From Phycisphaerae bacterium (GTDB lineage: Bacteria > Planctomycetota > Phycisphaerae > WQYP01), in contig JBBRWV010000005.1 in assembly GCA_038248985.1 (NCBI GenBank), positions 1 to 54,565 on the forward strand: DNA of 54,565 bases, given 5' to 3'. Shown one piece after another: positions 3,307 through 40,367 of the stretch. Each line of letters opens with the position of its first letter. Within the stretch, counting starts at the first letter, position 1. The notes beneath the pieces are model-generated. The model did no database searches. It saw only the letters and a program-made list of their open reading frames with translations, and had not been told where the DNA came from. Position numbers and translations under genes: made by a program.

Positions 3307-3426
3307 GGAGGCGGAGGGGGGCTGGGGCAAGACAGTTGTCGGTTGCCGGGGCATTGCTGTTTTTTTGTTTTGTTTTTCAGAATCTCATCTATGATGCGGC
3401 GGTGACTGCGATAGATGGGAGTCGTT

Positions 3427-3798
3427 ATGAGCAATCCTGAACCCAACGTTTATTCAGATTTGGCTTATGAGTCGGTTGAGCCGCGAAAGAAGCTGAACTG
3501 GCTGGGGATCACATCGTTGGGGATGGGGCTTTTAGTGGGATTGCTGGAGTTGGTGTTGATCGTACTGGCGGGTGTGCGAACAAATGCCGCCGGGGGCACG
3601 ATGAGCGAGACAGAAGCGATGATGATTGGTTTTGGAATACTGGGCGGGCTGATTATGGCGCTGGTGGGAGGCGCGGTGGGGTTTGGCTCGTTGTTTATCA
3701 GGGGGCGGGAGAAAATAAGCGGTTGGATTGGGGTGACGATTAACGCGGTGATTGTGCTGGGGGTTCTGGCGCTGTTGGTTATTGGATTACTGGCGTAA
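3427..3798 (+). CDS. Small membrane protein with about 3 TM segments, unknown function
   Basis: GGGAG RBS before ATG 3427; three hydrophobic segments. Confidence 0.7.
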   Translation: MSNPEPNVYSDLAYESVEPRKKLNWLGITSLGMGLLVGLLELVLIVLAGVRTNAAGGTMSETEAMMIGFGILGGLIMALVGGAVGFGSLFIRGREKISGWIGVTINAVIVLGVLALLVIGLLA

Positions 3799-3806
3799 GG
3801 GCAGGG

Positions 3807-4547: not shown

Positions 4548-4628
4548 GATAGAAGGGTATAGGGATCGGGGTTCAGGGTCCAGCGGTGGAGAGCGTAGAG
4601 TGTTGCACCGAAGGAGAATTGTCACCCC

Positions 4629-4754
4629 TTAGGGCCGGCGCAGGTTGGGATGGCGCAGAATGATATGGCTGCCAGTCTGATGGTCGACCTGGTATCCGAG
4701 TTTGCCGAAGGCTGTGACGGCATCCCTGCCGGAGCAAACTGGTAGGCGATTCAC
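4629..4754 (-). pseudogene. hicA: Truncated HicA-family toxin (41 aa)
   Basis: GTG 2 nt after the hicB stop: MNRLPVCSGRDAVTAFGKLGYQVDHQTGSHIILRHPNLRRP*. Has the HicA GSH motif but stops before the usual VP-H and final helix. Confidence 0.75.
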
Positions 4755-4756
4755 TA

Positions 4757-4963
4757 TCAAACCTCGACGATTTCTTCAGTGATCGGAAGCGGAATTGGGT
4801 CCCCATGTTTTTGGAGGCTTTCGACGTAACCAGCGATGGCGTCTTTGACATTGGTGACGGCTTCGGCGCGCGTTCTGCCTTGGGAGATACAGCCGGGGAG
4901 GGTCGGGCATTCCGCGACGAACGCTCCGTCTTCATCTTGTTCAATTACGACGCGGTATCTCAT
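4757..4963 (-). CDS. hicB: HicB-family antitoxin (short form)
   Basis: MRYRVVIEQDEDGAFVAECPTLPGCISQGRTRAEAVTNVKDAI, typical HicB; GGAG RBS. Confidence 0.9.
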   Translation of the reverse strand: MRYRVVIEQDEDGAFVAECPTLPGCISQGRTRAEAVTNVKDAIAGYVESLQKHGDPIPLPITEEIVEV

Positions 4964-5108
4964 AGGCTCTCCATACAAGTGCTGCCGTCATCATCGAATG
5001 ATAGGCGAGTAAAATCAAGCATAATAGGGCGATTGGGGGACGCGGACTGTGGGCCTGATGAACGCGGGACGATAAAGACAAACGTGTGAAGGGTGGCGGT
5101 GGACGGGG

Positions 5109-7781
5109 CTATTTTGATGGACGTTTTTTGGGGGATGCTGGTGGTGATTTATGGGGAGGTCGGCCGAGGGCGATTTTGAGGACGTCTTCGACGCGGGAGG
5201 CGAATTCGAATTTGAGGAGTTTGCGGATTTCGGGGCGGATTTCGGTGAGGTCTTTGCGGTTGCGTTCGGGGAGGATGACGGTTTTGATGCCGGCGCGCTG
5301 GGCGGCGATGGTTTTTTCCTTGATTCCGCCGATGGGGAGGACGAGTCCGCGGAGGGTGATTTCGCCGGTCATGGCGACGTCGGGGCGGGCGGCGCGGTTG
5401 GTGAAGAGGGAGGCGAGTGCGGTGTACATGGCGACGCCGGCGGAGGGGCCGTCTTTGGGGACGGCACCGGCGGGGACGTGGACGTGGATGTCGGTTTTGG
5501 CAAAGAGGTCTTCGGGGATGCCGAGAGAGAGGGCGTTGTGTTTGAGAAGGGAGAGAGCGGCCTGGGCGGATTCTTTCATGACGTCGCCGATTTGGCCGGT
5601 GAGCAGGAGGTTGCCTTTGCCGGGCATTTGGGTGGCTTCGATGAAGAGGATTTCTCCGCCGACGGGGGTGTAGGCGAGGCCGGTGACGACGCCGGGGGTG
5701 GCGGTGCGTTGGGCGAGTTCGGATTCGAACTTGGTGGGGCCGAGATAGGAGGCGAGGTCGTCGGGGGAGACGGTGATGGGTTTGGCGATTACTGATTTGG
5801 GGTTGCGACTTTTTGCGGTGGGGATGGTTTTGGGAGACGGCGCGGGAGCGGTGGGTTCGGCCTCGACGATTTTGGCGGCGACGCCACGGATGACGGAGGC
5901 GATGGTGCGATCGAGGCTGCGGACGCCGGCTTCGCGGGTGTAGTGATCGATGATGGCTTCAAGGGTTTTATTGGGGAGTGTGACCTGGGAGGCGGTAACG
6001 CCGTGCTCGCGTAGTTGGCGCGGCACGAGGAATTTGCGGGCGATTTTGAGTTTGTCGTGTTGGGTGTAGCCGGGGATTTCGATAATTTCCATGCGGTCTT
6101 TGAGGGCGGGGGGAACGGGCTCCATGTAGTTGGCGGTGCAGATGAAAATAATTTTGCTGAGGTCGAAGGCGACGCCGAGGTAGTGATCGGTGAAGGAGTT
6201 GTTTTGTTCGGGGTCGAGGACTTCGAGGAGGGCGGCGGAGGGATCGCCACGGAAATCGGCACCGAGCTTGTCGATTTCATCGAGCATGATGAGCGGGTTG
6301 TTGGTGCCGGTTTTGCGGAGCTCCTGGATGATGCGGCCGGGCATGGAGCCGATGTAGGTGCGGCGGTGACCGCGGATGTCGGCTTCGTCGCGCACGCCGC
6401 CGAGGGAGACGCGGACGAAATTTCTTCCGAGGGATTCGGCGATGGATTTACCGAGGGAGGTTTTGCCGACGCCGGGGGGGCCGACGAAGCAGAGGATGGG
6501 GCCGCGGCCATTAGGATTGAGTTTGCGTACGGCGAGGTATTCGATGATGCGCTGCTTGATTTTTTCGAGGTCGTAGTGGTCGCGTTCGAGGATTTTGCGG
6601 GCGGAGGGGATGTCGTATTTGTCGGTGGTGGATTTGGACCAGGGGAGTTCGGCGACGGTTTCGAGGAAGGTGCGGATGACGGAGTATTCGGGCGAGGCTT
6701 GGGGGATGACGGTGAGGCGGTTGAGCTCGCGGTCGGTTTCTTTCTGGACGGCGGGCGGGAGCTGGGCTTCTTCGAGGCGTTTGCGGAGTTCGGCGACGTC
6801 GGCTTCGGGGCCGCTGTCGTTGCCGAGTTCCTTTTGGATGGCTTTCATTTGTTCCTGCAGGAAGTAAGTGCGTTGGGTTTTGTCGATGGTGGTGCGGACT
6901 TGGTTCTGGATGCGTTCCTGCAGTTCGAGGAGTTCGATGCGCGCGGCGATGCGTTCGCGGACGCGTTCGAGGCGGAGGGTGACGTCAATTTCTTCAAGGA
7001 GGGATTGTTTTTCGGCGTATTCGCCGCTGAGGTTGGCGGCGAGGAAATCGGCGAGGACGCCGGGCTGGTCGATGTTGGTGATGATCTGTCCGGCTTCGTC
7101 GGGGATGTTGGGGGAGAGTTGGATCATGCGTTCGGCGGTTTCGCGGACGGACTTCACGAGGAGGTCGAAAGGCGGGGTGGAGTCAGGCGTTTTGTCCTGG
7201 AGGATTTCGACCTTGGCGCGGATGAAGGGTTCGGTTTCGAGGATTTCGACGATGCGGAAACGGACGAGGCCGTGGGTGAGGATGTTGAGGTGGCCTTCGG
7301 GGGCTTTGACCATTTTGAGGACGAGGGAAGCGGTGCCGATCTCGAAGAGGTCCTGGGGGTTGGGATCTTCAACGGCGTCATTGCGTTGGGTGATGACGCC
7401 GATGATTTTTTCGCGAGTGAGGGCGTCGTCGAGCATTTTGCGACTTTTGGGGCGTCCGACGGTGAGGGGGAGGACGGCACCGGGGAAGGCGACGGAGCCG
7501 CGGACGGGGAGAAGTGCGAGGGTGTCGGGGACTTGGATGGCTTGGATGAGGGGAGATTGGACGGGGGTTATTTTTACCCCCCCACTGCTGCTGGGGTTGG
7601 GGGTGGCGGCGCTGCGATTAGTTTTGGGGCGCGGGCTTTTTGGGGCGGGGGCGGGGGGATCGATGGGCGCAGAGGAAGGGGATTCGGGGGGAGTCAGCGG
7701 AGGTGTGTCGGACTCGGCGGGGGTCTTGGCAGCGGGTTGGGGCTGGGGAGATTTATCGTCGGGTTTATTGGTGTCGCTCAC
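5109..7781 (-). CDS. lon: ATP-dependent Lon protease
   Basis: LON N-domain, GPPGVGKT, RRTYIGSMPGRIIQ, catalytic PKDGPSAG and PIGGIKEK; about 80-aa Pro-rich N-terminal extension. Confidence 0.98.
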   Translation of the reverse strand: MSDTNKPDDKSPQPQPAAKTPAESDTPPLTPPESPSSAPIDPPAPAPKSPRPKTNRSAATPNPSSSGGVKITPVQSPLIQAIQVPDTLALLPVRGSVAFPGAVLPLTVGRPKSRKMLDDALTREKIIGVITQRNDAVEDPNPQDLFEIGTASLVLKMVKAPEGHLNILTHGLVRFRIVEILETEPFIRAKVEILQDKTPDSTPPFDLLVKSVRETAERMIQLSPNIPDEAGQIITNIDQPGVLADFLAANLSGEYAEKQSLLEEIDVTLRLERVRERIAARIELLELQERIQNQVRTTIDKTQRTYFLQEQMKAIQKELGNDSGPEADVAELRKRLEEAQLPPAVQKETDRELNRLTVIPQASPEYSVIRTFLETVAELPWSKSTTDKYDIPSARKILERDHYDLEKIKQRIIEYLAVRKLNPNGRGPILCFVGPPGVGKTSLGKSIAESLGRNFVRVSLGGVRDEADIRGHRRTYIGSMPGRIIQELRKTGTNNPLIMLDEIDKLGADFRGDPSAALLEVLDPEQNNSFTDHYLGVAFDLSKIIFICTANYMEPVPPALKDRMEIIEIPGYTQHDKLKIARKFLVPRQLREHGVTASQVTLPNKTLEAIIDHYTREAGVRSLDRTIASVIRGVAAKIVEAEPTAPAPSPKTIPTAKSRNPKSVIAKPITVSPDDLASYLGPTKFESELAQRTATPGVVTGLAYTPVGGEILFIEATQMPGKGNLLLTGQIGDVMKESAQAALSLLKHNALSLGIPEDLFAKTDIHVHVPAGAVPKDGPSAGVAMYTALASLFTNRAARPDVAMTGEITLRGLVLPIGGIKEKTIAAQRAGIKTVILPERNRKDLTEIRPEIRKLLKFEFASRVEDVLKIALGRPPHKSPPASPKKRPSK

Positions 7782-7834
7782 TTTGGTATTTCCTGCTTTA
7801 TTGTAGATTTGAAATTATCACGCGTGAAAGGGGA

Positions 7835-8266
7835 TTATTCGCGGGCGTCGGGCAATAGTTTGGGGAGAGTGACCCAGAGGAGGCCGTCGTGATAGTTGGC
7901 GGCGATGCCTTCGTGGCGGACAGTGGCGGGGATTTCGATGCTGCGACAGAAGGTGCCGTGGTCGATTTCCATGAGGTGTACGGCGACGGCGGGTGAACCG
8001 TCGGGGGGGATGGGGGATTGGCGGCGGCCGCGGATGATGACGAATTCTTTTTCGAGGGAGACTTCGATGTCATGGGCATCCATGCCGGAGAGGTCGGCGC
8101 AGAGGACGAAGGCGGTGAGGGTTTCGTAGAGGTTGACGGGAGGGCGGAAGGCGTCTGTGGGAGAGAAGCCGTGGTATTGGCGGCGCATTTCGCGATCGAC
8201 GACGTGGTTCATCTGGCGGACGAGGCTGGAGAATTCGTCGGCGAGTTCAATAGGGATAGCGACCAT
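7835..8266 (-). CDS. Hsp20/alpha-crystallin small heat-shock protein
   Basis: FRPPVNLYET, ADLSG, EIDHGTFCRSIEIP, ANYHDGLLWVTLPK; AGGAG RBS before ATG 8266; upstream of lon. Confidence 0.92.
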   Translation of the reverse strand: MVAIPIELADEFSSLVRQMNHVVDREMRRQYHGFSPTDAFRPPVNLYETLTAFVLCADLSGMDAHDIEVSLEKEFVIIRGRRQSPIPPDGSPAVAVHLMEIDHGTFCRSIEIPATVRHEGIAANYHDGLLWVTLPKLLPDARE

Positions 8267-8479
8267 GGGCAACTCCTGAATTTGCAGACGGAGGATTGTA
8301 TACAAGTTTTGGCGGATCGTCTTGTGGCGGAACTTTCTCAAAAAGGCAAATCAATTTTGGATTGCGGATTGGGGAGGCACGAGCCGCCTCTGAGATAGGC
8401 GGTTTGTACCCTTTAGATAATAATATGGCCTATGCTTAGCAATAAGAAGGTAATGAATTGGTTAGCTAAATGAGGATTC

Positions 8480-11400
8480 ATGCAGAAGTTAGCAGAGATT
8501 TGTATAAGGCGGCCGGTATTTGCCAGCATGATCATTTTAGCACTGGTGGTGGTGGGATCGGCGGCATTTTTTAGGTTGGGAGTGGATCGATTTCCAGCGG
8601 TGGATGTGCCGCGAGTGACGATACGGACATCTTTGCCGGGTGCGCCGCCAGAGCTGGTGGAGACGGAGGTGACGGAGCGGATCGAGGAGGCGGTGAACAC
8701 GGTGGAGGGGATTACGGAATTGCGATCGATCACGGGTCAGGGGACGTCGGCGGTCATTGTGTCGTTTGATCTGAAGCGGGATATCGATGCAGCGGCGCAG
8801 GATGTACGGGACCGGGTGGCGACGGTGCAACGGGATTTGACGCGGGCGGGGGCGGATCCACCGACGATCAGCAAGTTCAGCAATGATGATGCGCCGGTGA
8901 TGACGATTGCGATATCGGGGCCGCGGTCGTTGCGGGAATTGACGGAGGTGGCGGACAAGCAGATCAAGGAGGTGCTGGAGCGATCGAGCGGAGTGGGTGA
9001 GGTGCGGGTTGTGGGGGGTGCGCAACGGGCTATGAATGTGTGGGTGGATGCGGATCGATTGGCGGCGTATGAGTTGCCGATCACGGCGGTGCGGGATGCG
9101 CTGGTGCGGCAGAATGCGGATATTCCTGGGGGGAACCTGACGAATGCGCAACGGGAGGCGGCGGTGCGGATACCGGGGCGTCTGCAATCGGCGGCGGAGT
9201 TTGACGAAATTGTGATCGCCAAGCTGAATGGCGAAGTGGTGCGATTGAAGGACATCGGGCGGGCGAGTGACGACACGAAGGAGCAGCGGTCGGCGTCGTG
9301 GTTGAACGGGGTACCGACGGTGGTGGTGGAGGTGAGGCGGCAGAGCGGGGCGAACACGGTGGCAGTGATCAACGATGTGAAGGCGGCGCTGGGAAAGGCG
9401 AAGTGGGGGCTGGCAAGCGATATACGGGTGGAGGTGATACGGGATCAGTCGAATTATATCGAGGCGGCGCTGAACGAGATCAATTTGCACCTGGTGCTGG
9501 GGTCGGGGCTGGCGTGCCTGGTGGTGCTGGCGTTCATGCGTAACTGGCGCAGCACGTTTATTGCGGGGATCGCGATACCGACGTCGGTGATTGCGACATT
9601 TGGGATGATGTACGCGTTGGGATTCACGCTGAACAGCGTGACGATGCTGGCGCTGGTGCTGATGGTCGGGGTGGTGATCGATGATGCGATCGTGGTGCTG
9701 GAGAATATTTTTCATTTCATCGAAGAGAAGAAGATGAACCCGTTCGATGCGGCGCGGGAGGCGACGCGGGAGATCGGGCTGGCGGTGCTGGCGACGACGC
9801 TGAGCCTGGTGGTGATCTTTGTGCCGGTGTCGTTTATGAGCAGCGTCTCGGGGCGGTTTTTGTTTCAGTTCGGGATCACGGCGGCGGTGGCGGTGCTGGT
9901 GTCGCTGCTGGTGAGTTTCACGTTGACGCCGATGATGAGCTCGCGGTTGATCAAGGTGAAGGCGGGCGGAGCGAACGAGGCGGCGAAATCTCGGCGAGGA
10001 TTTTACGGATTGATTGATGGTGCCTACACCTGGATGTTGAAGTTGTCGATGCGCTTTCGGCTGGTGGTGGCATTGTTTGCGGTGGGGGTGATGCTGCTGT
10101 CGATACCGTTGTACCGGGCGGTGAAGCAGGAGTATGTGCCGAGTGATGTGGACGAGGCGGAGTTTCAGGTGAACATCACGGCGCCGGAAGGTGCGAGTTT
10201 TGAATCGATGCGCGACGCAATGAAGCAGGTGGACGAGGAGGTGCGCAAAGTGCCGGGGGTGACGCTGACATTGACGAGTGCGGGAGGCGGGTGGATCGGG
10301 CAGGTGAACTCCGGGGGGCTCTATGTGCGTATTGAGCCACATAAAAAACGGGTATTTTCACTAGGCAGGTTGTTTTCTGAGACGCTGCGTGGGACTCCGC
10401 AGAAGGCATTTGCGGGGAACTATTCACAGCGCGATGTCATGATGAACGTGCGGAAGGCTCTCGCGAAATTTAAGCAGTTGCGTGCAGGGGTGCAGAATTA
10501 TCCGTCATTCAACGTGGGCGGGTCGTCAGCGGATGTTGATTTTGTTTTGCGCGGGCCGGAGCTGGAGAACTTGCTGCAGTATGCGGAGGAGTTGCGTGAT
10601 AAGACGCAGCCGGGGGAGAACGGGGAAGCGGCGGAGATTCCCGGGATATTGGATGCGAATACGTCGCTGCGCCTCGACAAGCCGGAATTGCAGATCGTGA
10701 TCAACCGGAAACGGGCGGATGATTTGGGAGTAAGCCCGCAGGATCTGGGGGCTGCGATACGGCTGCTGGTGGGCGGGGATGAACGGGTGAGCCGATTCAG
10801 GGATGAGGTGATAGGCGAAGTTTATGACGTGCAGTTGCGACTGGAAGTGAAAGACCGATTGAAGGACGACCAATTGCAGTCGTTGTTTTTACCCCGGCAG
10901 GATACGGGCGGCCAACTAGTGGAACTCTCCAACATTGCGGACATCAAGACGGTGAATTCGGCATCACGGATTGACCGACTGGACAGGCAAAGGACGGTGG
11001 CAATACGGGCGTCGGTGGCACCGGGCTTTGCGCAAGCGGATCGCATCGCGGCGTTGCGCCAAACGGTAGCGAAGATGAATTTGCCGGCGACGTATACGAA
11101 CACGATCAGCGGGCGTGCGAAGGAACTGGAGACGACGTTTGTCGAGTTCCTGTGGGCTTTTCTGCTATCGGTGATTTTCATGTACATCATCCTGGCATCG
11201 CAATATGAGTCGCTGGTGCATCCGTTGACCATTTTGTTGAGCCTTCCGCTGAGCGTTCCGTTTGCGTTATTTTCACTATGGGCGAGCGGCGGGACGCTGA
11301 ATCTTTATTCGGCGCTGGGGATACTGGTGCTGTTCGGCGTGGTGAAGAAGAATGCCATTTTGCAGATCGACCACATGAATCAGCTACGGCAAAAAGGTTT

Positions 11401-11713
11401 GTCACGTTTTGATGCGATTATCCAGGGGAATCGGGATCGGTTGCGGCCGATCCTGATGACGACACTGGCGCTGGTGGCGGGGATGCTGCCACTGTGGCTG
11501 GGATCGGGGCCGGGATCGGAGGAGCGTCGCGCGGTGGCGGTGGTGGTGATTGGGGGGCAGACGTTGTCGCTATTGTTGACGCTGCTGGTGACACCGGTGG
11601 TGTATTCGCTGCTGGAGGATGTGGCGTCGGTTGTGCGGGGGCAGAAGCGGCCGGCGAATACGGCGGTGAAGAAGACGGTGACGGCGGTGGTGGAACACGC
11701 TGGCAGCGCGTGA
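8480..11713 (+). CDS. RND efflux transporter permease (AcrB/MdtB-like)
   Basis: 1077 aa; IRRPVFA N-terminus, IDDAIVVLEN, KKNAIL, RLRPILMTT motifs. Confidence 0.96.
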   Translation: MQKLAEICIRRPVFASMIILALVVVGSAAFFRLGVDRFPAVDVPRVTIRTSLPGAPPELVETEVTERIEEAVNTVEGITELRSITGQGTSAVIVSFDLKRDIDAAAQDVRDRVATVQRDLTRAGADPPTISKFSNDDAPVMTIAISGPRSLRELTEVADKQIKEVLERSSGVGEVRVVGGAQRAMNVWVDADRLAAYELPITAVRDALVRQNADIPGGNLTNAQREAAVRIPGRLQSAAEFDEIVIAKLNGEVVRLKDIGRASDDTKEQRSASWLNGVPTVVVEVRRQSGANTVAVINDVKAALGKAKWGLASDIRVEVIRDQSNYIEAALNEINLHLVLGSGLACLVVLAFMRNWRSTFIAGIAIPTSVIATFGMMYALGFTLNSVTMLALVLMVGVVIDDAIVVLENIFHFIEEKKMNPFDAAREATREIGLAVLATTLSLVVIFVPVSFMSSVSGRFLFQFGITAAVAVLVSLLVSFTLTPMMSSRLIKVKAGGANEAAKSRRGFYGLIDGAYTWMLKLSMRFRLVVALFAVGVMLLSIPLYRAVKQEYVPSDVDEAEFQVNITAPEGASFESMRDAMKQVDEEVRKVPGVTLTLTSAGGGWIGQVNSGGLYVRIEPHKKRVFSLGRLFSETLRGTPQKAFAGNYSQRDVMMNVRKALAKFKQLRAGVQNYPSFNVGGSSADVDFVLRGPELENLLQYAEELRDKTQPGENGEAAEIPGILDANTSLRLDKPELQIVINRKRADDLGVSPQDLGAAIRLLVGGDERVSRFRDEVIGEVYDVQLRLEVKDRLKDDQLQSLFLPRQDTGGQLVELSNIADIKTVNSASRIDRLDRQRTVAIRASVAPGFAQADRIAALRQTVAKMNLPATYTNTISGRAKELETTFVEFLWAFLLSVIFMYIILASQYESLVHPLTILLSLPLSVPFALFSLWASGGTLNLYSALGILVLFGVVKKNAILQIDHMNQLRQKGLSRFDAIIQGNRDRLRPILMTTLALVAGMLPLWLGSGPGSEERRAVAVVVIGGQTLSLLLTLLVTPVVYSLLEDVASVVRGQKRPANTAVKKTVTAVVEHAGSA

Positions 11714-11858
11714 TTATCTGTCAGAAGATTGCGATGCAGGTTGGGACGTGGTGTGGTGTGGGTTGTGGTGGCGAGGCGTTCCTGCCGAGTGAGGGCGGGA
11801 ACGATCTTGATGGGACCGCGGATGACGATGCGCTGGTAATGATCCCAAGTGTGCCGGT

Positions 11859-12038
11859 TTACTTCATTTTTTCTACCCTCCCTGCATCGATCAGTTGCTG
11901 GTCAATCTCCACCGGTTCTGGAACATCCAGCCATTGGGAATAGGTAGAATCGATGCGTGAGTGCATTACGATGCTTCGGTCACAGGCGGTGAGTGACACG
12001 AAGCCAAGCGTCAGAGCAATCATCGGCAGTGTTCGCAT
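11859..12038 (-). CDS. Putative small lipoprotein (59 aa), absent from ORF track
   Basis: AAGGA RBS and ATG 2 nt after the VIT gene stop; MRTLPMIALTLGFVSLTAC DRSIVMHSRIDSTYSQWLDVPEPVEIDQQLIDAGRVEKMK*; lipobox LTAC. Confidence 0.55.
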   Translation of the reverse strand: MRTLPMIALTLGFVSLTACDRSIVMHSRIDSTYSQWLDVPEPVEIDQQLIDAGRVEKMK

Positions 12039-12040
12039 GA

Positions 12041-14206
12041 TTATTCCTTTACGGTGGTTTCATATTTGACACCATCGGGCATGGGAACGGGAACGGCGAT
12101 GGTGGTGCCGTGGTCGCCGGCGGTCTTAGTGAGGGAATCGACAGCGACGAAGGCGGTGAAGGGGGACATAAGGCCGTATTCGAGGGCGGGGGCTTTTACA
12201 TCTTTGGTGATATCGGTATCGGTGCGAATGGCGGTGTCGGTGAGATCGGCGATTTTCATGCGAGCCCAGATGGTGCGAATGCCGGGGTTTTGATCGGTGT
12301 TGTCGTCGCCCATGGTGAGGCTGAACGAGCGTTGTTCCTTACCGGCCTGGCCGCAGATTTGCGCGGTGCCGGAAGAGGTGCCCTGGAAGCGGCCGGTGAT
12401 GATGACGGGCTTTCCAACGAAGAGGTCGGGGACTTTTTTGGGGTAGACGTCGGTGACTTTGAGGCCGTCGAACTGAAGGGCAATGTTGGTGAGGGCGGGG
12501 TGACTGATGCGTTCGAAATAGGCGTTCATGATGGGCTCGGCCTGGTCGTTGAGCGAGAGGTAGGCGGCGGTGCCGTTGCCGATTTGGGCCATGGAGTTGA
12601 GGAGGTAGCGATTGGGGGAGGAGCCGACGCCGAAGGAGAAGACGCGGGAGGCGGAGAGTTTGGCATAGAGGGAGCGGAGGATTTCGGTTTCGTTGCCGAT
12701 GAAGCCGTCGGTGAGGAAGGCGACAACGCGGGTGCGATTTTCATCGTGGTGGAAGTCGAGGGCCTTGTTGATGCCGAGGAGCATTTCCGTGCCGCCGCCT
12801 TCGTTTAGATCATGGACGTAGGTTTCGGCCTTGCGGCGATTTTCTGCGGAGGCAGAGAGAGGGGAGGCGGCCATTTGCGAGGCACTGCCGGCGAACTGCA
12901 CGATTTGGAAAGTGTCGGTGGCATCCATTTTTCCGAGGGCGACAGCGACGGCATTTTTGCATTGTGCGAGGGGCTCGCCACTCATGGAGCCGGAGGTGTC
13001 GACGACGAAAACCATTTCGACGGAGCGGCGCGGGAGGCTTTTGAGTTCTTCAGGGGGGACGAGCATGAGGGTGAAGAAGCCGCCGTTGCCTTTGGCGTCT
13101 TTTTGGACAAACATGGCGGATTTGACGGTTTTTCCGGCGACTTTGTAGCGGAGGACGAAGTCTTTATTGGGGATGGAGTCGGCTTGGTCCAATTTAATGG
13201 AGGTGCGGCCGGCGGCTTGTTCCTGCTGCTGGATTTTGTGATTGACGGAATTGAGTTTTTCGATGGTGACACCGGCGTGGAGATCGACGGCGAGGGAAAT
13301 ATCGTGGCCGCTGCGGTCGGTGGGTTTGAGGTATGGGACTTCGGAGGATTGGCCGGAGGTGCCGTGGCGGCCGCGGGAGATGGCGCCGATGCCATCGGTG
13401 GTGCCTTCGGGGTTGTAACGGGGGCCGACGACCATGGGGAAGGCCCATTCATACCAGCCATCCTGATAGGAGAGGGTGTGAAAGTAGCGGATTTGGATGT
13501 CGATTTTTTTACCGGGTTCGATGTTGGCGACGCGCTGGGTGAAGATGTTGGGGCGTTCTTGCGTCATGAGGGAGGCGACGTAGCCTTGCGTTTTGGCGGC
13601 ATTGTATATCTTGGTGGCTTCTTCGCGCTCGCGGATGATGCCGCGGATTTTGCGGTCGCCGACGGTCATTACGAATTCGTTGATGCCGGCGTTGTCGGGA
13701 AGGGGGAAGACGTAGACGGCTTCGATTTTTTCGGGGAAGTTGTTTTCGAATTGTTGCGTGACGAGGACGGAGGAGATGTAGCCGGAGATGGTGGCTTTGA
13801 CGTCGGTATGTTTGAGGGGGACGGGGATGAATTTTTGGTCTTTTTCGATGGCGAGTGTGCCGGAGGTTGGGGTTTGGTCATCGGGAATGGCTGTGGTGCG
13901 GGATTGATCGGCGGTGGGTTTTTGAATGATCCAGAGTTCATCCTGGCCTGCCGAGGCTGTTGATTTGGAGGGGAATGCAGCACCCGATGCTCGACCCATC
14001 ATGAACTTCTGCTTTCCCGTGGCCCGTGACTCGTTCGACCCGTCCTGGTATCTACGATCAAATCCCACGTTCTGCTCATCGTATAAGCTTGATAGATGAT
14101 TGAATTTGGACTCACTGGACCGTGGCCCATTGCACGCAACAAAAAGAATCGCCGTCGTGATCATCATGAACAGCGCCACCAGCGAACATATCCACTTGCT
14201 TTTCAT
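12041..14206 (-). CDS. VIT (vault inter-alpha-trypsin) plus vWA domain protein, probable lipoprotein
   Basis: Signal peptide ending LFVAC; VIT PLKHTDVKATISG...EAVYVFPLP; vWA MIDAS FVVDTSGSMSG, GGGTE, FLTDG. Confidence 0.92.
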   Translation of the reverse strand: MKSKWICSLVALFMMITTAILFVACNGPRSSESKFNHLSSLYDEQNVGFDRRYQDGSNESRATGKQKFMMGRASGAAFPSKSTASAGQDELWIIQKPTADQSRTTAIPDDQTPTSGTLAIEKDQKFIPVPLKHTDVKATISGYISSVLVTQQFENNFPEKIEAVYVFPLPDNAGINEFVMTVGDRKIRGIIREREEATKIYNAAKTQGYVASLMTQERPNIFTQRVANIEPGKKIDIQIRYFHTLSYQDGWYEWAFPMVVGPRYNPEGTTDGIGAISRGRHGTSGQSSEVPYLKPTDRSGHDISLAVDLHAGVTIEKLNSVNHKIQQQEQAAGRTSIKLDQADSIPNKDFVLRYKVAGKTVKSAMFVQKDAKGNGGFFTLMLVPPEELKSLPRRSVEMVFVVDTSGSMSGEPLAQCKNAVAVALGKMDATDTFQIVQFAGSASQMAASPLSASAENRRKAETYVHDLNEGGGTEMLLGINKALDFHHDENRTRVVAFLTDGFIGNETEILRSLYAKLSASRVFSFGVGSSPNRYLLNSMAQIGNGTAAYLSLNDQAEPIMNAYFERISHPALTNIALQFDGLKVTDVYPKKVPDLFVGKPVIITGRFQGTSSGTAQICGQAGKEQRSFSLTMGDDNTDQNPGIRTIWARMKIADLTDTAIRTDTDITKDVKAPALEYGLMSPFTAFVAVDSLTKTAGDHGTTIAVPVPMPDGVKYETTVKE

Positions 14207-14227
14207 CACGGTCTCTTCAAGGAACAA

Positions 14228-14695
14228 TCAGTTTACGCCAGCGGTGGCAGGAATTTTTTCGCCGCTGGGGCCGCAGGACTCCATCAGTTTGACCACGTAG
14301 TGTGGCTTGTCGATTCCGGTGATTTGCATGTGCACGCGGGCGACGCGGGTTTTGCCTTTGGGAAGGCCAACGCCGGTGTTGAAGGCGGCCACGATGATGC
14401 GTTTTCCGTGTAACGCGGCGGGATCATAGTATGGGGGTTCGGCGAAGGCACGATGGTCTCCGCCTTCGAGGCCGACGATTTCGGCGGTGCCATTTTCGAG
14501 GGCGAGTTCGAATTGATAGGCGGCGAGTTTTTGCGTGGCGGAGTCGACCCAGACGTCGACGGATTCAAAGCGGATTTCGGCATTGTCAATGAGAGGAGCT
14601 TCGATGCCGGATTTTGCTTGGTGCCAGACGATCAGCGTGACCAGACTGAGCAAGAGAGCGGCCAAAACAACTTCAAACAAACGCGGGCGTTTCAT
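14228..14695 (-). CDS. Membrane-anchored protein with cohesin-like beta-sandwich domain
   Basis: N-terminal TM, then alternating beta-strand pattern VDVWVDS...LAAYQFEL...IIVAAF...LPKGKTRVARVHMQI resembling cohesin consensus by eye; start overlaps the upstream stop. Confidence 0.65.
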   Translation of the reverse strand: MKRPRLFEVVLAALLLSLVTLIVWHQAKSGIEAPLIDNAEIRFESVDVWVDSATQKLAAYQFELALENGTAEIVGLEGGDHRAFAEPPYYDPAALHGKRIIVAAFNTGVGLPKGKTRVARVHMQITGIDKPHYVVKLMESCGPSGEKIPATAGVN

Positions 14696-15084
14696 CGTGC
14701 AGCCCCCCCACTGTTATCGAGCCGGACGGAGGCGAGGGTAAGTTGATCGATGCGTTGCTGGGTGATGGTGGCATCACCGGCGGCTTGCTTGCGGGCGAGG
14801 GTGAAAGCGTCGGCTATGGAAATGCGGCCATCGTGGTTGATATCGTCGGGATCGTAGGACTGGGCGGAAAACCAGAGGGTGCCGAAGATCGTGAGACAGG
14901 CAGCGGCGCTCAGGCTGGCGGCAGCGAGGATCATTTTGCGGAGGCGACGGCGGCGGGAGATGGAGCTAGAGGCATCGTGAAGAATGACGGCGTCCAGTTC
15001 AACGGGGATGCTGGAGGGGGTTTGAGCGGATTGCCGGAGTTGGTTGATCAGATCGGCTGGAAGTTGGTCGAAATCATTTGCCAT
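14692..15084 (-). CDS. Putative anti-sigma factor with extracytoplasmic dockerin-like/EF-hand loop
   Basis: Directly after ECF sigma; cytoplasmic N-terminus (IPVELDAVIL), RRRR, TM (AAASLSAAACLTIFGTLWF), then DINHDGRISIADAFTLAR (DxNxDGxIxxxD). Confidence 0.75.
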   Translation of the reverse strand: MANDFDQLPADLINQLRQSAQTPSSIPVELDAVILHDASSSISRRRRLRKMILAAASLSAAACLTIFGTLWFSAQSYDPDDINHDGRISIADAFTLARKQAAGDATITQQRIDQLTLASVRLDNSGGAAR

Positions 15085-15118
15085 ACAGGCCCTTTAGTGC
15101 GTAGGGACGGGGTTGGGT

Positions 15119-15664
15119 TCAAATATTTTCATAATATTTCTGGATGCGGGGATTTTGGCGCAATTCGGCGAGCGCGTGGTGCAGACGGCTTTTGACGGTG
15201 CCGAGGGGGATCTTCAGGAGGGTGGCGATTTCTTCGAGCGAAAGGTCATCCACAAAACGCAGGTTCACTACTTCTTGATGTTCATCCGACAGGTTACGCA
15301 GGAGGATTTGCAGATCGTGTGTGGGGTGGGCGGCCTCGGGGAAGGGGCGGTCGGGGAGGGTGTCGGGGCTCAGGGTGGGCTCGCGACGTTTGCGTTTGCG
15401 GACGACGATGGCGGTATTTTTGACGACGGGGTAGAGGAAGGTCGTCATGCTGGCGGTGAGGGTCAGGCCGGGGAACTTTCGCGCGAGGTAAGCGAAGGTT
15501 TCCTGCAGGACGTCGAGGGTGTCTTCCTGGTTTTGGGTGAAGCGCCAGGCGAGACGATGGACCCACTCCCGATGGCGGTGATAGAGTACGGCGAAGGCGT
15601 CATCGTCGCCGCGATTGATTGCGTCGATGATTTCCAAATCAGAACGTGAGTCGGTCGCTGTCAC
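15119..15664 (-). CDS. ECF RNA polymerase sigma factor
   Basis: GDDDAFAVLYHRH, DVLQETF, LRFVDDLSLEEIATLLKIPLGTVKSRLHHA; likely GTG start at 15664. Confidence 0.92.
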   Translation of the reverse strand: MTATDSRSDLEIIDAINRGDDDAFAVLYHRHREWVHRLAWRFTQNQEDTLDVLQETFAYLARKFPGLTLTASMTTFLYPVVKNTAIVVRKRKRREPTLSPDTLPDRPFPEAAHPTHDLQILLRNLSDEHQEVVNLRFVDDLSLEEIATLLKIPLGTVKSRLHHALAELRQNPRIQKYYENI

Positions 15665-15776: not shown

Positions 15777-16808
15777 ATGGATTCATCCGCCAAGCCCACT
15801 TTCATCTGTGTGACCCCGGTCAAAGACGAAGCATGGATCCTGGAGCGATTTCTGCGATGCGCGAGCGTGTGGGCCGATCATATTGTTATCGCGGACCAGC
15901 AATCGCGCGATGCGACACGGGAAATCGCAAGGCAGTTTGAGCGGGTGCGGTTGATCGACAATCCCATTCCTCGGTACGATGAAGCTGGGCGTCAAAAGCT
16001 TTTGCTGGAGGCGGCGAGGAAGTTGCCGCTGGTGGCGGAGACGAACAAGCGGCTGATTATGGCATTGGATGCAGATGAGGCGTTGACGGGGAATTTTCTT
16101 AGGAGCCCCGAATGGATGACTGTGCAAAACGCCGGACCGGGTAGTGTGATCTGCTTCAATTGGGTGAATATTCGGCCGAATTTTCGGTCGGGGTGGATAC
16201 CCGAGGTCGATTTGCCATTGGGGTATATGGATGACGGGGCGGAACATCAGGGGACGGTCCTGCACAACTGGCGGGTACCGACACCGGCGGGAGCGCCGCG
16301 AATTGTTTGTCATGACATCAAGATTTTGCATTATCAGTACTCAGATTGGCAGCGAATGAAGAGCAAGCATCGGTGGTACCAGTGTTTTGAGCGTATCACT
16401 AACCAACAGAAATCGGCGATTGACATATTTCGACAATATCACCATATGTACGCGGTGCCCGACAAACAAGTTGCCAACATTGATCCAAAATGGTTTCAGA
16501 TCTATAGCGATATGGGAATCGATATGACCTCGGTCACGAAACAAACAAGCTACTATTGGGATGTGCAGATTGCTGACTGGCTGAACGAGCACGGTGCGGA
16601 GAAGTTTGCACAATTGGATATTTGGCAGGTGGATTACGAAGCCGTTTTTATGGCGGCGCATGATGTTGGGCCGGCACAGAGCCTTCAGGATCCGCGGACA
16701 CCGGAGCAGCGTGAGACGATCGCGTGGCTGCGCAAAACACAGGCTGTTGCGGCGGTCGACACTGCGGTACAGGCACATGAAGTTAAATTGAAAGAGGCGG
16801 GATGGTGA
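15777..16808 (+). CDS. Glycosyltransferase family 2-like protein
   Basis: VTPVKDEAWILERFL, IADQQSRDAT, ALDADE (DxD), ILHY. Confidence 0.85.
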   Translation: MDSSAKPTFICVTPVKDEAWILERFLRCASVWADHIVIADQQSRDATREIARQFERVRLIDNPIPRYDEAGRQKLLLEAARKLPLVAETNKRLIMALDADEALTGNFLRSPEWMTVQNAGPGSVICFNWVNIRPNFRSGWIPEVDLPLGYMDDGAEHQGTVLHNWRVPTPAGAPRIVCHDIKILHYQYSDWQRMKSKHRWYQCFERITNQQKSAIDIFRQYHHMYAVPDKQVANIDPKWFQIYSDMGIDMTSVTKQTSYYWDVQIADWLNEHGAEKFAQLDIWQVDYEAVFMAAHDVGPAQSLQDPRTPEQRETIAWLRKTQAVAAVDTAVQAHEVKLKEAGW

Positions 16809-17608
16809 GCGGTTCCACATCGTGTCCGCTGTGCGGCGGAACTATGCTGCTGACCGCGGTGGAAACGCCGACGTGGCGGGTGCGTGCTTGCGAGAGTTGC
16901 ACCAATGCGTGGACGGAGCCGGCCCCGGGTAGCATCGACTATGCAGCGGCGAATTTTCACGAGAAGACGGCGTCACGGCGAGGTGAGGGGAAGACCTTTG
17001 GTAACTTGCCGCCGCAATGGCAGAAAAGTCGCGATATGCAAGTCGGGTTGCTGCAACGCTATCTACCGAGCGGTGCCAAAGTGCTGGAAATAGGCTGTGG
17101 CGAGGGCATATTGCTGGAACGGTTGGCCGGGTCGGGGTTTGCCGTAACGGGGATCGAGCCGAGTCAGACGGCCTCGGGAAATGCGCGGGCGGCGGGGTTG
17201 AATGTGGTTACGGGATACTTCCCACATGCGCATATCACAGGGAAGTTTGACTGCGTGATTTTGTCGCATGTGTTGGAACATCTAGAAAATCCGCGAGAGA
17301 TTCTGGAGCGTGCGTGTGCAATTGCACCGCGGATTTTGCTGGTTCAGACGCACTGGCTGGGAGTCATGCCGCAGCGCTATCGGGACAAGTGGTACGCGTG
17401 GCTGCCGGAGCAGCATTTCTGGCATTTCACACCGCGCGGGCTGGAGACGCTTCTGACACCGATGAACTATCGCACCGAGGCCGTCGAGTATTCGTCGCTG
17501 GTGCATACCCGACCCGATGGGACGCTCAATCAGTTTTCCACCGTTGCGCTGTCAACGCCTAGTGGCGGAGATCAATTCCACCACCTGTTCCAGCGCGCGG
17601 AGAGATGA
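16802..17608 (+). CDS. Class I SAM-dependent methyltransferase with N-terminal zinc ribbon
   Basis: CPLCGG...CESC; VLEIGCGEG; GIEPS; SHVLEHLENP. Confidence 0.9.
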   Translation: MVSGSTSCPLCGGTMLLTAVETPTWRVRACESCTNAWTEPAPGSIDYAAANFHEKTASRRGEGKTFGNLPPQWQKSRDMQVGLLQRYLPSGAKVLEIGCGEGILLERLAGSGFAVTGIEPSQTASGNARAAGLNVVTGYFPHAHITGKFDCVILSHVLEHLENPREILERACAIAPRILLVQTHWLGVMPQRYRDKWYAWLPEQHFWHFTPRGLETLLTPMNYRTEAVEYSSLVHTRPDGTLNQFSTVALSTPSGGDQFHHLFQRAER

Positions 17609-17609
17609 C

Positions 17610-18632
17610 ATGAAACGTGTGCTGGCGCTTTCATGCGATGCCAAGTTTTTTAGACATGCACAAGAACTGATTTCCAGCGTGCACAAGACCAGCAGGCGGT
17701 TAGTAGATGAGATTCTATTTTTTGACCTGGGGCTGACGGGGGAGCAGCGAGATACGCTGACTGGATCAAATTTTCATGTTATGGGCTACCCGACGTGGCT
17801 GACGGAGCGTCTTTATCCTGATTTTCTCAGCCCGCGGATGTTTGCATGGAAGACGTTTGTGTTGGTGGAAGCAGCCAAACATGGGGACTTGGTATTGTAT
17901 GCAGATAGCGCGTGCGTTCTGCTGAACTCGCTGGCTCCGATTTACGAGATTATTGAGCACGATGAAGTCTTTATGATCCGAGATGTGCAACGCAACGATG
18001 AGCGCACCCATGAGGCGTGTTTTGGGATCATGAACGCCACGCTGGCGGAACGTGGTGCCAGCCAGATTGATGCGGGAGTACTGGGGTATAGTTCGGGGGG
18101 ACGTTTTGCGGGGATCTTCGCCGAGGCTTTTGAGTTTGCAAAATATCGCAACTGCATTTTTGGTGATGCGACGACCCACCGCCATGACCAATCCATCTAT
18201 TCGATCTTGGCGGCTCGTTATGCTGTGCCATCCCTGCATGCTTACGGTGATTTTGTGCACTGGAAGGGAATTGAGTCGCGCGAACAGATTGTGTGGCAGC
18301 ATCGAGGGAAATGGCCATTTTTCAAGCGATTTGCCGAGCGAGCGGCGATCCTGAGCCCTGCGCGTATCGCAATATATGGCGCGGGCAAACATACGGAGCG
18401 CTTTCTGGCAACCTTCCGCAACTTGGCGGAGCCGCGGCACCGCGTGGTGGGGATCCTGGATGATTCGCCAAGAGCAGAAAGCTTCGCAGGGGTGCCGATC
18501 TTGCAAACGATGGCGTGGCAGCAACTACAAGCCGATGTCATCGTGCTTTCGAGCGATGCCCATGAAGAAGCGATGTATTTGAAATTTGGGGAGATTGCGC
18601 CACAAATGGCTATTTGGCGTATATATAGCTAG
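17610..18632 (+). CDS. GT-A-like (DUF1647-like) protein with C-terminal Rossmann-like domain
   Basis: FDLGLT, FAWK, LYADS, HRHDQSIYSIL; C-terminal IAIYGAGKHT domain; start MKRVL at 17610. Confidence 0.75.
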   Translation: MKRVLALSCDAKFFRHAQELISSVHKTSRRLVDEILFFDLGLTGEQRDTLTGSNFHVMGYPTWLTERLYPDFLSPRMFAWKTFVLVEAAKHGDLVLYADSACVLLNSLAPIYEIIEHDEVFMIRDVQRNDERTHEACFGIMNATLAERGASQIDAGVLGYSSGGRFAGIFAEAFEFAKYRNCIFGDATTHRHDQSIYSILAARYAVPSLHAYGDFVHWKGIESREQIVWQHRGKWPFFKRFAERAAILSPARIAIYGAGKHTERFLATFRNLAEPRHRVVGILDDSPRAESFAGVPILQTMAWQQLQADVIVLSSDAHEEAMYLKFGEIAPQMAIWRIYS

Positions 18633-18653
18633 CGCGTTGGGGGATTCTTTGTG

Positions 18654-19400
18654 TTACCGAGGTTTGCGGACCCACCAGACGTAGCCATAGTCGAGCGTCG
18701 GTACCAAGCCGCGTTTGCCGAGGCATTCTTCGACCGCTTGTTTGACGCCGGGCCATTCTGGTTGGTCGAAATCATGGCCCGAAACTATCCCGCCCGGGCG
18801 CACGCGATCCCACCAGGCCTCAATGTCGTCGCGAACCCCCTCGTAGCCGTGATCGGCATCCACGAACACAAAATCCACTACGCGACTGAAGGAATGTGCA
18901 GCGTCGGTGGTCGTGGCGCGAAGCAGTTCCCAACGGCCCGTGCTTTCGAGATGGCCACGGGTTTTTGCGCAAAGGGCGTCGAACCATTCCTGGGTCACTT
19001 CGTCGTAGCCGTTGCCGGGCCGTAGTTTATGGAAGGCATCGACGCCGTAGAGAAAAAGATTGGGGCAGGCTTCGACAAGATGCTGGGCGTGATAACCATA
19101 GAGCACGCCGAGTTCCACGCCGACGCGAAGGCCGTACTTGCGGATCAAATTTTCCAGGACGACGAATTGGTCGTTAAAGCCCATGTTTTTTGAGAGAAGG
19201 AAGTCGACAACGCGCGTGTAGGTGAAGGGCGTTTGCGGCCAATCGAACAGCAGGTTGCGCATGCGTTGGGCGGGGGCATGGGAAGGATCGATCGCGAGCA
19301 ACTGATCCAGAAAGGTCATTGCCTGATCGTGCTGGCCGGCGGCCTTGGCGACCTTGGCAGCACAGAAAAGGGAGGAGGTGTCGACAGCAAGCATGGTCAT
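18654..19400 (-). CDS. TPR plus SAM methyltransferase (Methyltransf_24-like)
   Basis: N-terminal TPR-like helix pair; VELGVLYG, DFVFVDADHGYEGVRDD, PGGIVSGHDF. Confidence 0.88.
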   Translation of the reverse strand: MTMLAVDTSSLFCAAKVAKAAGQHDQAMTFLDQLLAIDPSHAPAQRMRNLLFDWPQTPFTYTRVVDFLLSKNMGFNDQFVVLENLIRKYGLRVGVELGVLYGYHAQHLVEACPNLFLYGVDAFHKLRPGNGYDEVTQEWFDALCAKTRGHLESTGRWELLRATTTDAAHSFSRVVDFVFVDADHGYEGVRDDIEAWWDRVRPGGIVSGHDFDQPEWPGVKQAVEECLGKRGLVPTLDYGYVWWVRKPR

Positions 19401-19434
19401 AACAGCACCAATTCAAGTCCAATTCAGGTCGTCT

Positions 19435-20424
19435 TCAGGCTTTGATGCGGCCAATAAAGTAGTGACAAATATCCCGGTGCTGCAAATGGGTGACATCGCG
19501 GAAGCTGTTGTGAAACAGCGATTCGTAGTGCTGCGCGAGGGTGGAGGTGAGGTAGCTGTCGATCATGCGAATGGGATGTCCGGCATCATAAGTCTTGGTG
19601 GCACGCAGCGCTTCGAGAGTCGTGGTTACATCAGCGAAAACAAAAACTCCCTCTGGCTTCAGCAGAGCGCGGATGTTGGCGAAAATCCGGGGAATGTCGA
19701 AACAATGCTCGAGCACGTTCACCATAACCACCATGTCATACTTAACAGCGGGAGTAAAGCATTCAATTGGCGAAGCTAAGGTGCGGACGGATTGGCTCAC
19801 TAATTGATGTTTTGGATAGGTGCAGTGCGGATGGGTCAGATAGCTGTCAATCAGGGGGTCCAGCAAGTCGATCTGGCCGGTCACTTTCACCAGCGGCAGA
19901 ATCAGGCGCAGGTTGGTGAACGGGCCGCAGCCCAGTTCGATCACATTGTCGAACTGTCGACGGGCGATGGTGCTGTAATTGCCAAATTGTTGTTTATGGA
20001 ACTCGTTGCGGTCATCGAGGGCACCGAGGTTTTGTTCCATCCAGGTTTTGCGTTCATAGCGTTGGGCCTCCTGCCAGCGCGAGGAGTCAACCTGGAGGAT
20101 GCCATCGGTGGTGAGGAAGCGGGAATCATTTTTCTCCGCCAGTTTTTGGGCGGCGGCGGGGCCGTGGTATTCGCGAATGGAATCATCTACAAAATAGTGA
20201 TACTGATCCTGCTCCTGCCATTCGCGGAGTTTCCAGGACGGAGCCAGTTTGTGCTCAACGAGAAGGGCCTTGGCCCGCGCATGATGGGGATCGGCCAGAA
20301 GAATCTGTTCGAGCAAACGGCGGGCCTCCCCTGTTTGGGCTGCCGCAAGTCGCGTTTCGGCCTGCGCGAGGAGAGCGGCGATATCGGGAGGAGTGGAGAC
20401 AGCCGGTGATTGCAACGTAGACAT
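19435..20424 (-). CDS. TPR plus class I SAM methyltransferase
   Basis: N-terminal TPR-like segment; VIELGCGP, NVLEHC, LLKPEGVFVF. Confidence 0.85.
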   Translation of the reverse strand: MSTLQSPAVSTPPDIAALLAQAETRLAAAQTGEARRLLEQILLADPHHARAKALLVEHKLAPSWKLREWQEQDQYHYFVDDSIREYHGPAAAQKLAEKNDSRFLTTDGILQVDSSRWQEAQRYERKTWMEQNLGALDDRNEFHKQQFGNYSTIARRQFDNVIELGCGPFTNLRLILPLVKVTGQIDLLDPLIDSYLTHPHCTYPKHQLVSQSVRTLASPIECFTPAVKYDMVVMVNVLEHCFDIPRIFANIRALLKPEGVFVFADVTTTLEALRATKTYDAGHPIRMIDSYLTSTLAQHYESLFHNSFRDVTHLQHRDICHYFIGRIKA

Positions 20425-20511
20425 TTCGGATCCATCCGTAAGTACGCCTTCCGTGGAGTGTCGATAGGTTTATCGACCGCGATGCGTCTGGTACAACAGC
20501 GAAAAGTGACG

Positions 20512-40333: not shown

Positions 40334-40367
40334 CTCCTACAGCATCCGCTGTTTCGAGGAGGTCCAG

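Follow-up and report, generated by a model that had tools for sequence, protein, structure and literature searches.

We analyzed a 54,565-nucleotide (nt) stretch of DNA from a Phycisphaerae bacterium, referred to here as the window, and identified a conserved unit of four genes at positions 12041-15664 on the minus strand. The genes encode an extracytoplasmic function (ECF) sigma factor, a membrane protein with a single transmembrane (TM) helix that ends in a dockerin (the TM-dockerin protein), a protein with a predicted cohesin fold, and a VIT-vWA lipoprotein. We propose, with a probability of roughly 60%, that this unit encodes an ECF sigma factor together with its anti-sigma factor, that the periplasmic coupling of the system is a contact between cohesin and dockerin, and that the VIT-vWA lipoprotein serves as the sensor or a partner. 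An earlier note, made from the letters of the window alone, had described positions 11859-15664 as five co-oriented and tightly packed genes, and the coordinates of the open reading frames (ORFs) agreed with this description. All five are on the minus strand and arranged head to tail, with a gap of 34 nt between the sigma gene and the gene for the 130-amino-acid (aa) TM-dockerin protein, an overlap of 4 nt between the latter and the gene for the 155-aa cohesin-like protein, a gap of 0 nt to the gene for the 728-aa VIT-vWA protein (21 nt if its start is the ATG at residue 8), and a gap of 2 nt between this gene and a 59-aa gene.

To count the linkage of these genes, we fetched 80 related loci via the cohesin family, 8 of them from Verrucomicrobiota, and treated as evaluable those with enough flanking sequence. 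Of 73 evaluable loci, 71 had a gene for a TM-dockerin protein directly 5' of the cohesin gene, the misses being L089 and L091. Similarly, a VIT-vWA gene was found 3' of the cohesin gene on the same strand in 54 of 56 (misses L073 and L076), and the cohesin-linked VIT-vWA proteins were 48-66% identical to that of the window. For the ECF sigma gene, 59 loci were evaluable; 46 of them had one no more than 2.7 kb upstream, which was co-directional in 35 cases and divergent in 11. Clustering of all ORFs at the 80 loci revealed no further widely conserved gene. We also examined an even sample of the phylum consisting of 401 genomes. The cohesin family occurred in 49 of these, always as a single copy, and the N-terminal module of the TM-dockerin protein in 36; both modules were present in 31 genomes, and in 29 of these 31 they were at most 1 kb apart on one contig. 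The earlier note had suggested conservation of the neighborhood as a check, and we found the genes adjacent across both phyla. The four-gene module is a real conserved unit in many Planctomycetota and some Verrucomicrobiota.

The 130-aa protein was assigned at the level of its family. In the window copy, the residues D81-I-N-H-D-G-R-I-S-I-A-D92, read from the translation, fit the dockerin calcium-loop pattern DxNxDGxIxxxD, and the first repeat is intact, with the Ca loop followed by the helix DAFTLAR (helix 90-101 in the AlphaFold 2 (AF2) model). The ORF directly 5' of the cohesin gene, considered over the 80 loci, encodes a protein that spans the membrane once and, as called, is 116-354 aa long. 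When 46 aligned orthologues were compared with Pfam, 41 matched Dockerin_1 at E<=0.01 with a best value of 3.2e-10, and the family profile built from alignment A2 matched solved dockerins at 9.8e-6 to 2.9e-4, among them 5lxv_B (9.8e-6), 2jnk (2.5e-5) and CelS (2.7e-4). The C-terminal consensus of the orthologues reads DIDxNGRVDILDAFxLARxIE...WDxNGDGxVDxxDVDxxAxAAVxL. At 73 evaluable loci both Ca loops were found in 61 orthologues and one loop in 10. The second loop is gone in the window copy and its nearest relative, and the first is gone in other relatives, while the helix DAFxLAR is retained in all of them. Since the orthologues matched both Dockerin_1 and solved dockerins, the dockerin identity of the window protein can be considered settled at the family level by these profile matches, and at this level the dockerin-like assignment in the earlier note, with its degenerate second repeat, was upheld. 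A single-sequence search with the window protein retrieved only its own cluster, and a Foldseek search with the model of the whole 130-aa protein gave no match at E<=10.

The 155-aa protein belongs to a large and highly conserved family, with 318 relatives and 18 invariant positions in alignment A1. An AF2 model built on A1 had a predicted local distance difference test (pLDDT) score of 91.2 and was searched against known structures. Foldseek against the PDB returned almost only cohesins, the best being the non-cellulosomal cohesin 2xdh (E 4.4e-4, target-normalised TM-score 0.62). An independent, all-against-all wide search of 48,161 chains with VIA-align placed cohesins at all of ranks 1-18 with Z scores of 8.2-10.3, root-mean-square deviations of 2.6-3.1 A and 106-115 of about 116 residues aligned; the first match not named a cohesin had a Z score of 7.4. 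In agreement with the structural comparison, hhalign against 13 Pfam-recognised cohesin segments of the phylum gave a probability of 86.7% (E 4.3e-6 over 99 columns). The model indicates that the protein has the nine-stranded flattened beta-sandwich (jelly-roll) fold of cohesins, as the earlier note had suspected. A search of the window genome with PF00963 passed over the 155-aa gene, and by these profile comparisons the family is a remote relative of cohesins and not a member of Pfam PF00963. A quick tree of the family grouped the window with two Phycisphaerae metagenome-assembled genomes. The earlier note had also regarded the protein as TM-anchored, and this part was not upheld. A hydrophobic N-terminal stretch was seen in 106 of 109 evaluable homologues and was followed in 98 of them by a small-x-small motif, detected by a heuristic. 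Because of these two features, the protein probably carries a cleavable signal peptide and is secreted rather than anchored. Three longer cohesin relatives were found, one being a true fusion and two having a low-complexity insert. In the latter two (P0123 and P0124), the insert of ~150 residues is rich in Pro, Thr and Asp and sits between the LAAYQFEF strand and the GVEGGEH loop.

We searched the window genome (92% complete) with three family hidden Markov models (HMMs), one for the dockerin, one for the cohesin and one for the N-terminal module. All three matched the module genes only, and Pfam Dockerin_1 found nothing else in this genome. Pfam Cohesin had one weak match elsewhere (G000:C105:7688-8002 on the minus strand; E 0.0088, 17.6 bits), which was under the cut-off and inside a 697-aa open frame. 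Since each module occurs once in the window genome, the cohesin and the dockerin, as recognised by these profiles, constitute a one-to-one pair and not a scaffold system.

The product of the first gene is, by its domain content, an ECF sigma factor of group 4. Its longest ORF extends to 15754, and the GTG at 15664 gives a protein of 181 aa. Pfam detected Sigma70_r2 (2.3e-10) and Sigma70_r4 (1.1e-14), and no r3 or r1 was listed; the NCBIfam model TIGR02937 scored 76.8 bits against a cut-off of 42.9. The earlier assignment as an ECF sigma factor agreed with these matches. Orthologues at related loci were 42-62% identical. The sigma gene adjoins the gene of the TM-dockerin protein in two different gene orders. 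Alignments A2 and A5 indicated that the latter protein has an N-terminal module of two helices, in which the motif LPxxLxxDLxxL...VPxxVDxAIL is conserved and an Arg-rich stop-transfer stretch comes after the motif. This stretch precedes the single TM helix, indicating an N-in single-pass topology, and in the AF2 model the cytoplasmic helices span residues 10-20 and 28-73, the latter being continuous through the membrane. The NCBIfam model NF052375, named 'anti-sigma factor', matched 22 of the 46 orthologues at E<=0.01, with a best value of 1.8e-5 and scores under the cut-off of the model, and matched the window copy at E 0.012. Atlas suggested a zf-HC2 cluster at 0.84, which we take as a lead only. 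A profile of the N-terminal module retrieved 1,681 representatives at E<=1e-3; among its best 150 matches, 134 carried a dockerin as detected with our own HMM. The profile also retrieved, in genome G124, a relative with a FecR domain, the gene of which comes after that of an ECF sigma factor. We infer that the TM-dockerin protein contacts the adjoining ECF sigma factor and is its putative anti-sigma factor.

The 728-aa protein matched Pfam VIT (3e-35) and VWA_3 (1e-15), and its metal ion-dependent adhesion site (MIDAS) residues are present as DTSGS, then GGGTEM, then LTDG. A lipobox Cys could be read from the translations of both this protein and the 59-aa protein. The description of a VIT-vWA lipoprotein with an intact MIDAS was accurate. 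When compared with TIGR03788, the protein scored 522.7 bits (cut-off 551.65; E 1.2e-156) over profile positions 3-593 of 629. It ends with VKYETTVKE and has neither a hydrophobic tail nor a C-terminal sorting signal. Judging from this alignment, it is a relative and not a member of TIGR03788, and would be anchored by its N-terminal lipobox instead. At one related locus (L040), two tandem VIT-vWA genes (1678-3564 and 4186-6078), with products 59% and 58% identical to that of the window, follow a single cohesin gene.

Two kinds of natural fusion were detected among the relatives of these proteins. P0122/P0275, seen on contigs of 144 and 62 kb, unites in one chain the N-terminal module and TM helix with a dockerin of two loops and with the cohesin. 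Only one hydrophobic segment is present in this chain, so the signal peptide of the cohesin itself has been lost. In P0156, on the other hand, the N-terminal module and TM helix are joined through a Pro-rich linker directly to a VIT-vWA part, which shares 32% identity with the window protein along 613 residues. The P0156 gene is downstream of an orthologous sigma gene (54% identity) and has the same orientation, in a genome where no member of this cohesin family was detected. Between the sigma gene and the P0156 gene in this genome (G235) there is a DUF4349 lipoprotein-like gene (E 3.8e-41; L125:5081-6343 on the minus strand), which holds the place taken elsewhere by the dockerin and cohesin genes.

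On the basis of these components we propose the following mechanism. A minimal anti-sigma factor with a single TM helix would keep the ECF sigma factor at the inner membrane, binding it through ~50 cytoplasmic residues that form two helices. The dockerin would be the sole periplasmic part of the anti-sigma factor, and the secreted cohesin from the next gene would plug onto it, a contact that we infer and that is probably Ca2+-dependent. The VIT-vWA lipoprotein would be the third extracytoplasmic component, a sensor or partner, and the cohesin-dockerin joint would couple it non-covalently to the anti-sigma factor. A change on the VIT-vWA or the cohesin side would then shift dockerin occupancy; for instance, the MIDAS might bind a ligand, Ca2+ might be lost or the envelope might be damaged. 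As a result, the anti-sigma factor would be exposed to regulated proteolysis and the sigma factor would be freed. Both the kind of signal and the release by proteolysis are speculative and are proposed by analogy with RseA/RseB. The earlier note had put forward that the pair may gate anti-sigma release with the vWA protein as sensor or effector; this idea is strengthened by the two natural fusions and by the FecR-type relative of the N-terminal module.

Several groups of observations weigh against this signaling reading. The first group concerns the two partner domains. The second repeat of the window dockerin has no Ca loop, although its helix is kept (109-123 in the AF2 model), and the window copy scored 13.2 bits with Dockerin_1 (PF00404; E 0.1), which is under the cut-off of 22.9. 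The 155-aa protein had no Pfam match at E<=1 and no NCBIfam match, and the A1 profile run against the PDB sequences found no solved cohesin, only a chance match at E 0.43. One could argue from the sub-threshold scores of the window copy taken alone, and from the Z scores of 6-7 that beta-sandwich adhesin and pilin domains also reached against the cohesin-like model, that we are dealing with a chance resemblance between a generic EF-hand-type Ca loop and a generic Ig-like beta-sandwich that do not interact. We consider this very unlikely, since the dockerin matches hold at the family level, 18 cohesins were ranked over every other fold, hhalign reached 86.7%, the two genes were adjacent in 71 of 73 loci and the dockerin and cohesin occur naturally fused.

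A second group of observations concerns the link between the TM-dockerin protein and the sigma factor. The N-terminal module has no known Pfam anti-sigma domain, either in the window copy or in the 46 orthologues. In addition, the profile of this module includes the TM helix, and an MscS channel in G298 was among the proteins picked with it, so the reach of the profile may be partly TM-driven. In 13 of the 59 evaluable loci there was no sigma gene within 2.7 kb, and the upstream neighbors were unrelated genes, including those for alpha-2-macroglobulin, histidine kinases and a sulfatase. We also found no common promoter motif 5' of 53 sigma genes, since exact pairs of a 5-mer and a 4-mer with a 15-18 nt spacer were not above those in shuffled sequences. 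The main rival of the signaling reading draws on part of this group. It holds that the TM-dockerin protein is a mere membrane anchor that tethers the cohesin and, through it, the VIT-vWA protein in a miniature surface assembly, with the sigma factor as a local regulator that it does not bind. The three-gene core is indeed tighter (71/73 and 54/56) than the sigma link (46/59), the unrelated genes at the 13 loci and the missing Pfam anti-sigma domain fit an anchor, and the characterised cohesin-dockerin pairs are all assembly modules. Moreover, a non-cellulosomal 'planctosome', in which the pair would have the different use of peptidase assembly, has been proposed for other Planctomycetes (PMC6461901). 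An anchor would have no need for a conserved motif in its 50 cytoplasmic residues, however, and the sigma gene is still adjacent in two gene orders and still beside the fused gene of P0156. The sub-threshold matches to NF052375 in 22 of 46 orthologues and the FecR-type relative adjoining an ECF sigma gene also speak against it, and we regard the anchor-only explanation as unlikely.

The last group of observations that the signaling reading has to accommodate concerns the fusions. Each fusion type was found in one organism only, and when 151 genomes of another class were searched with P0156, all matches began after residue 186 and no further fusion of the N-terminal module with VIT-vWA was found. 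The input role of the VIT-vWA protein can also be questioned in a different way, namely by assuming that the cohesin is an RseB-like guard that caps the dockerin against a site-1 protease and that the VIT-vWA protein belongs to the output of the regulon, for example as an adhesin or in the repair of the envelope, with no part in sensing. In E. coli the order rpoE-rseA-rseB is that of sigma factor, anti-sigma factor and periplasmic binder, and the module copies this order; furthermore, none of our results shows a contact of the cohesin with the VIT-vWA protein. Target genes are often within ECF operons (PMC7826278). We nevertheless find the guard explanation rather improbable. P0156 joins the N-terminal module and TM helix to VIT-vWA, which argues for VIT-vWA on the input side, and the cohesin-linked VIT-vWA proteins are unusually conserved (48-66% identity across two phyla) and encoded directly downstream, often with little or no gap.

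We compared the module with characterised systems, beginning with RpoE-RseA-RseB and AlgU-MucA-MucB. Like these, the module consists of an ECF sigma factor, a single-pass anti-sigma factor (putative in our case) and a secreted periplasmic protein, and by analogy with RseB and MucB the cohesin would be expected to bind the periplasmic domain of the anti-sigma factor and control its proteolysis. There is, however, no relation in sequence or fold to RseA and RseB, the module having a cohesin-fold binder and a dockerin as periplasmic domain, and neither the 155-aa nor the 130-aa protein had a Pfam match to MucB_RseB or RseA. The VIT-vWA lipoprotein stands in the place of RseC of the E. coli system. 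In the FecI-FecR-FecA system, the periplasmic domain of the sigma regulator contacts a separate sensing envelope protein, as we propose for the module, and the FecR domain next to an ECF sigma gene in a relative of the N-terminal module adds to the likeness. On the other hand, the window has no FecR domain, TonB-dependent transducer or link to iron, and the proposed contact in the module is of the cohesin-dockerin type.

The pairs of PF00963 and PF00404 share with the module the cohesin fold and, in the orthologues, a dockerin of two repeats with Ca loops. The module differs from these cellulosomal and non-cellulosomal pairs in several respects: it is a one-to-one pair from adjacent genes without scaffoldin or enzymes, its dockerin is on a membrane protein of 130-190 aa beside an ECF sigma factor and has often lost one Ca loop, its cohesin family is unseen by Pfam, and its proposed role is in signaling or coupling rather than in enzyme assembly. 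A further parallel is SigI-RsgI of cellulolytic clostridia. There, as in the module, the external domain of the anti-sigma factor is drawn from the cellulosome toolkit. RsgI, which controls cellulosome genes, has sensors of the carbohydrate-binding or PA14 type; the external part in the module is instead a dockerin that comes with a cohesin of its own, without linked carbohydrate-active genes. The vWA protein also has counterparts. In ECF289, as described by Casas-Pastor et al. (2021; PMC7826278) in their re-classification of ECF sigma factors, the anti-sigma factor has an extracytoplasmic vWA-DUF3520 region. The module likewise has a vWA domain on the extracytoplasmic side of an ECF system, and P0156 shares the layout with VIT-vWA; the window instead encodes its vWA protein separately, as a lipoprotein in which no DUF3520 was detected, with the cohesin-dockerin pair in between. 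TIGR03788, the marine proteobacterial sortase target, aligns with the 728-aa protein over VIT, vWA and the C-terminal region, while the latter has an N-terminal lipobox, no C-terminal sorting signal and a score under the cut-off. The window genes that we examined on either side of the module included no sortase.

The earlier note had stated that no characterised system with this layout was known, and our literature work was consistent with the statement. A full-text search found, in the text it covered, no anti-sigma factor that carries a dockerin or has a cohesin as its partner. Neither dockerin nor cohesin is mentioned in the main text of PMC7826278, the ECF re-classification, whose supplementary group descriptions may list the group. 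As far as this literature extends, we believe that the module is probably an ECF signaling system with cohesin-dockerin coupling on the extracytoplasmic side that has not been described before. Textbooks present cohesin-dockerin pairs as assembly modules, and the literature found describes no part for them in signal transduction. If the signaling reading is correct, the module defines an ECF sigma/anti-sigma family in ~1 of 8 sampled Planctomycetota genomes (49/401) and also in Verrucomicrobiota, with an unusual sensor design that is split over three proteins and held by a plug-and-socket joint. It would also give the first functional context for a Pfam-invisible cohesin family and for bacterial VIT-vWA (ITIH-like) lipoproteins, two large 'hypothetical' groups, and could be a tool in the form of a compact, orthogonal and probably Ca2+-switchable membrane-to-transcription device. 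A more far-reaching idea, which we offer tentatively, is that the pair was recruited from structural assembly to transmembrane signaling, that a reversible Ca2+-dependent joint to a VIT-vWA sensor decides the release of sigma, and that the single-chain forms may be covalent ancestors or derivatives of the split sensor.

Table 1. Coordinates of the module genes, their domains and the adjoining small gene in the window.
Feature	Position	Strand	Basis or remark
ECF (group 4) sigma factor, 181 aa from GTG 15664	15119..15664	-	Sigma70_r2, Sigma70_r4, TIGR02937
Putative anti-sigma factor, whole gene, 130 aa	14692..15084	-	Single TM helix and dockerin
Putative anti-sigma factor, cytoplasmic N-terminal module, residues 1-51	14932..15084	-	Alignments A2, A5; AF2 model
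Putative anti-sigma factor, single TM helix, residues about 52-73	14866..14931	-	Hydropathy scan; AF2 model
Predicted periplasmic dockerin module, residues 79-123	14716..14850	-	Orthologue Dockerin_1 matches; model helices
Small, probably secreted cohesin-like protein, whole gene, 155 aa	14228..14695	-	N-terminal residues 1-28 = signal peptide or anchor
Predicted cohesin-fold domain, residues 40-155	14231..14578	-	AF2 model, Foldseek, VIA-align, hhalign
VIT-vWA lipoprotein, 728 aa	12041..14227	-	Pfam VIT, VWA_3; TIGR03788 relative
VIT domain	13484-13816	-	Pfam
vWA domain, MIDAS intact	12566-13018	-	Pfam
Putative lipoprotein, 59 aa, adjoins module	11859..12038	-	Lipobox LTAC

The 59-aa protein had been counted as the fifth member of the operon. 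It does have a lipobox and adjoins the other genes, but it had no Pfam family match, and tblastn at E<=1e-5 found it in 0 of the 80 related loci. The tiny lipoprotein is outside the conserved unit, which consists of four genes. PADLOC matched none of the five proteins. A scan for the sigma-70 promoter consensus gave no match, and no terminator was found on the minus strand either. Among sequencing runs, three DNA data sets from two studies contained the stretch, and no RNA data set was listed for it. The module is flanked in the window by genes for a Lon protease (5109-7781, minus strand) and an AcrB-type resistance-nodulation-division (RND) pump (8480-11713, plus strand) on one side and by a cluster of glycosyltransferase and methyltransferase genes (15777-22863) on the other. 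ORF clustering of the related loci indicated that none of these flanks was kept beside the module in other genomes. At some sigma-less loci of Planctomycetaceae, an alpha-2-macroglobulin gene is directly 5' of the trio of TM-dockerin, cohesin and VIT-vWA genes (L035:48-3419 and L050:19-5172), with long ORFs also in L032 and L033. Since VIT-vWA resembles the inter-alpha-trypsin inhibitor heavy chains, the trio beside alpha-2-macroglobulin may have a protease-inhibitor theme.

We also noted an extreme GC skew in the window and in the whole genome (G000), which tracks the DNA strand and not the gene. On the plus strand of the window, G outnumbered C by 5627 to 2653 at 1-14 kb (1-14000), and C outnumbered G by 5678 to 2745 at 36-50 kb (36001-50000). 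The skew at third codon positions was +0.62 in a plus-strand gene and -0.61 to -0.67 in minus-strand genes. Genome-wide, the median absolute skew was 0.28 per 5 kb, as compared to a median maximum skew of 0.05 for the related loci. The sign of the skew switched 34 times in 3.09 Mb (contigs >=10 kb) with no link to gene orientation, a number far above that expected from one origin and one terminus. Numerous inversions, joins made during assembly or an unusual mode of mutation are candidate causes.

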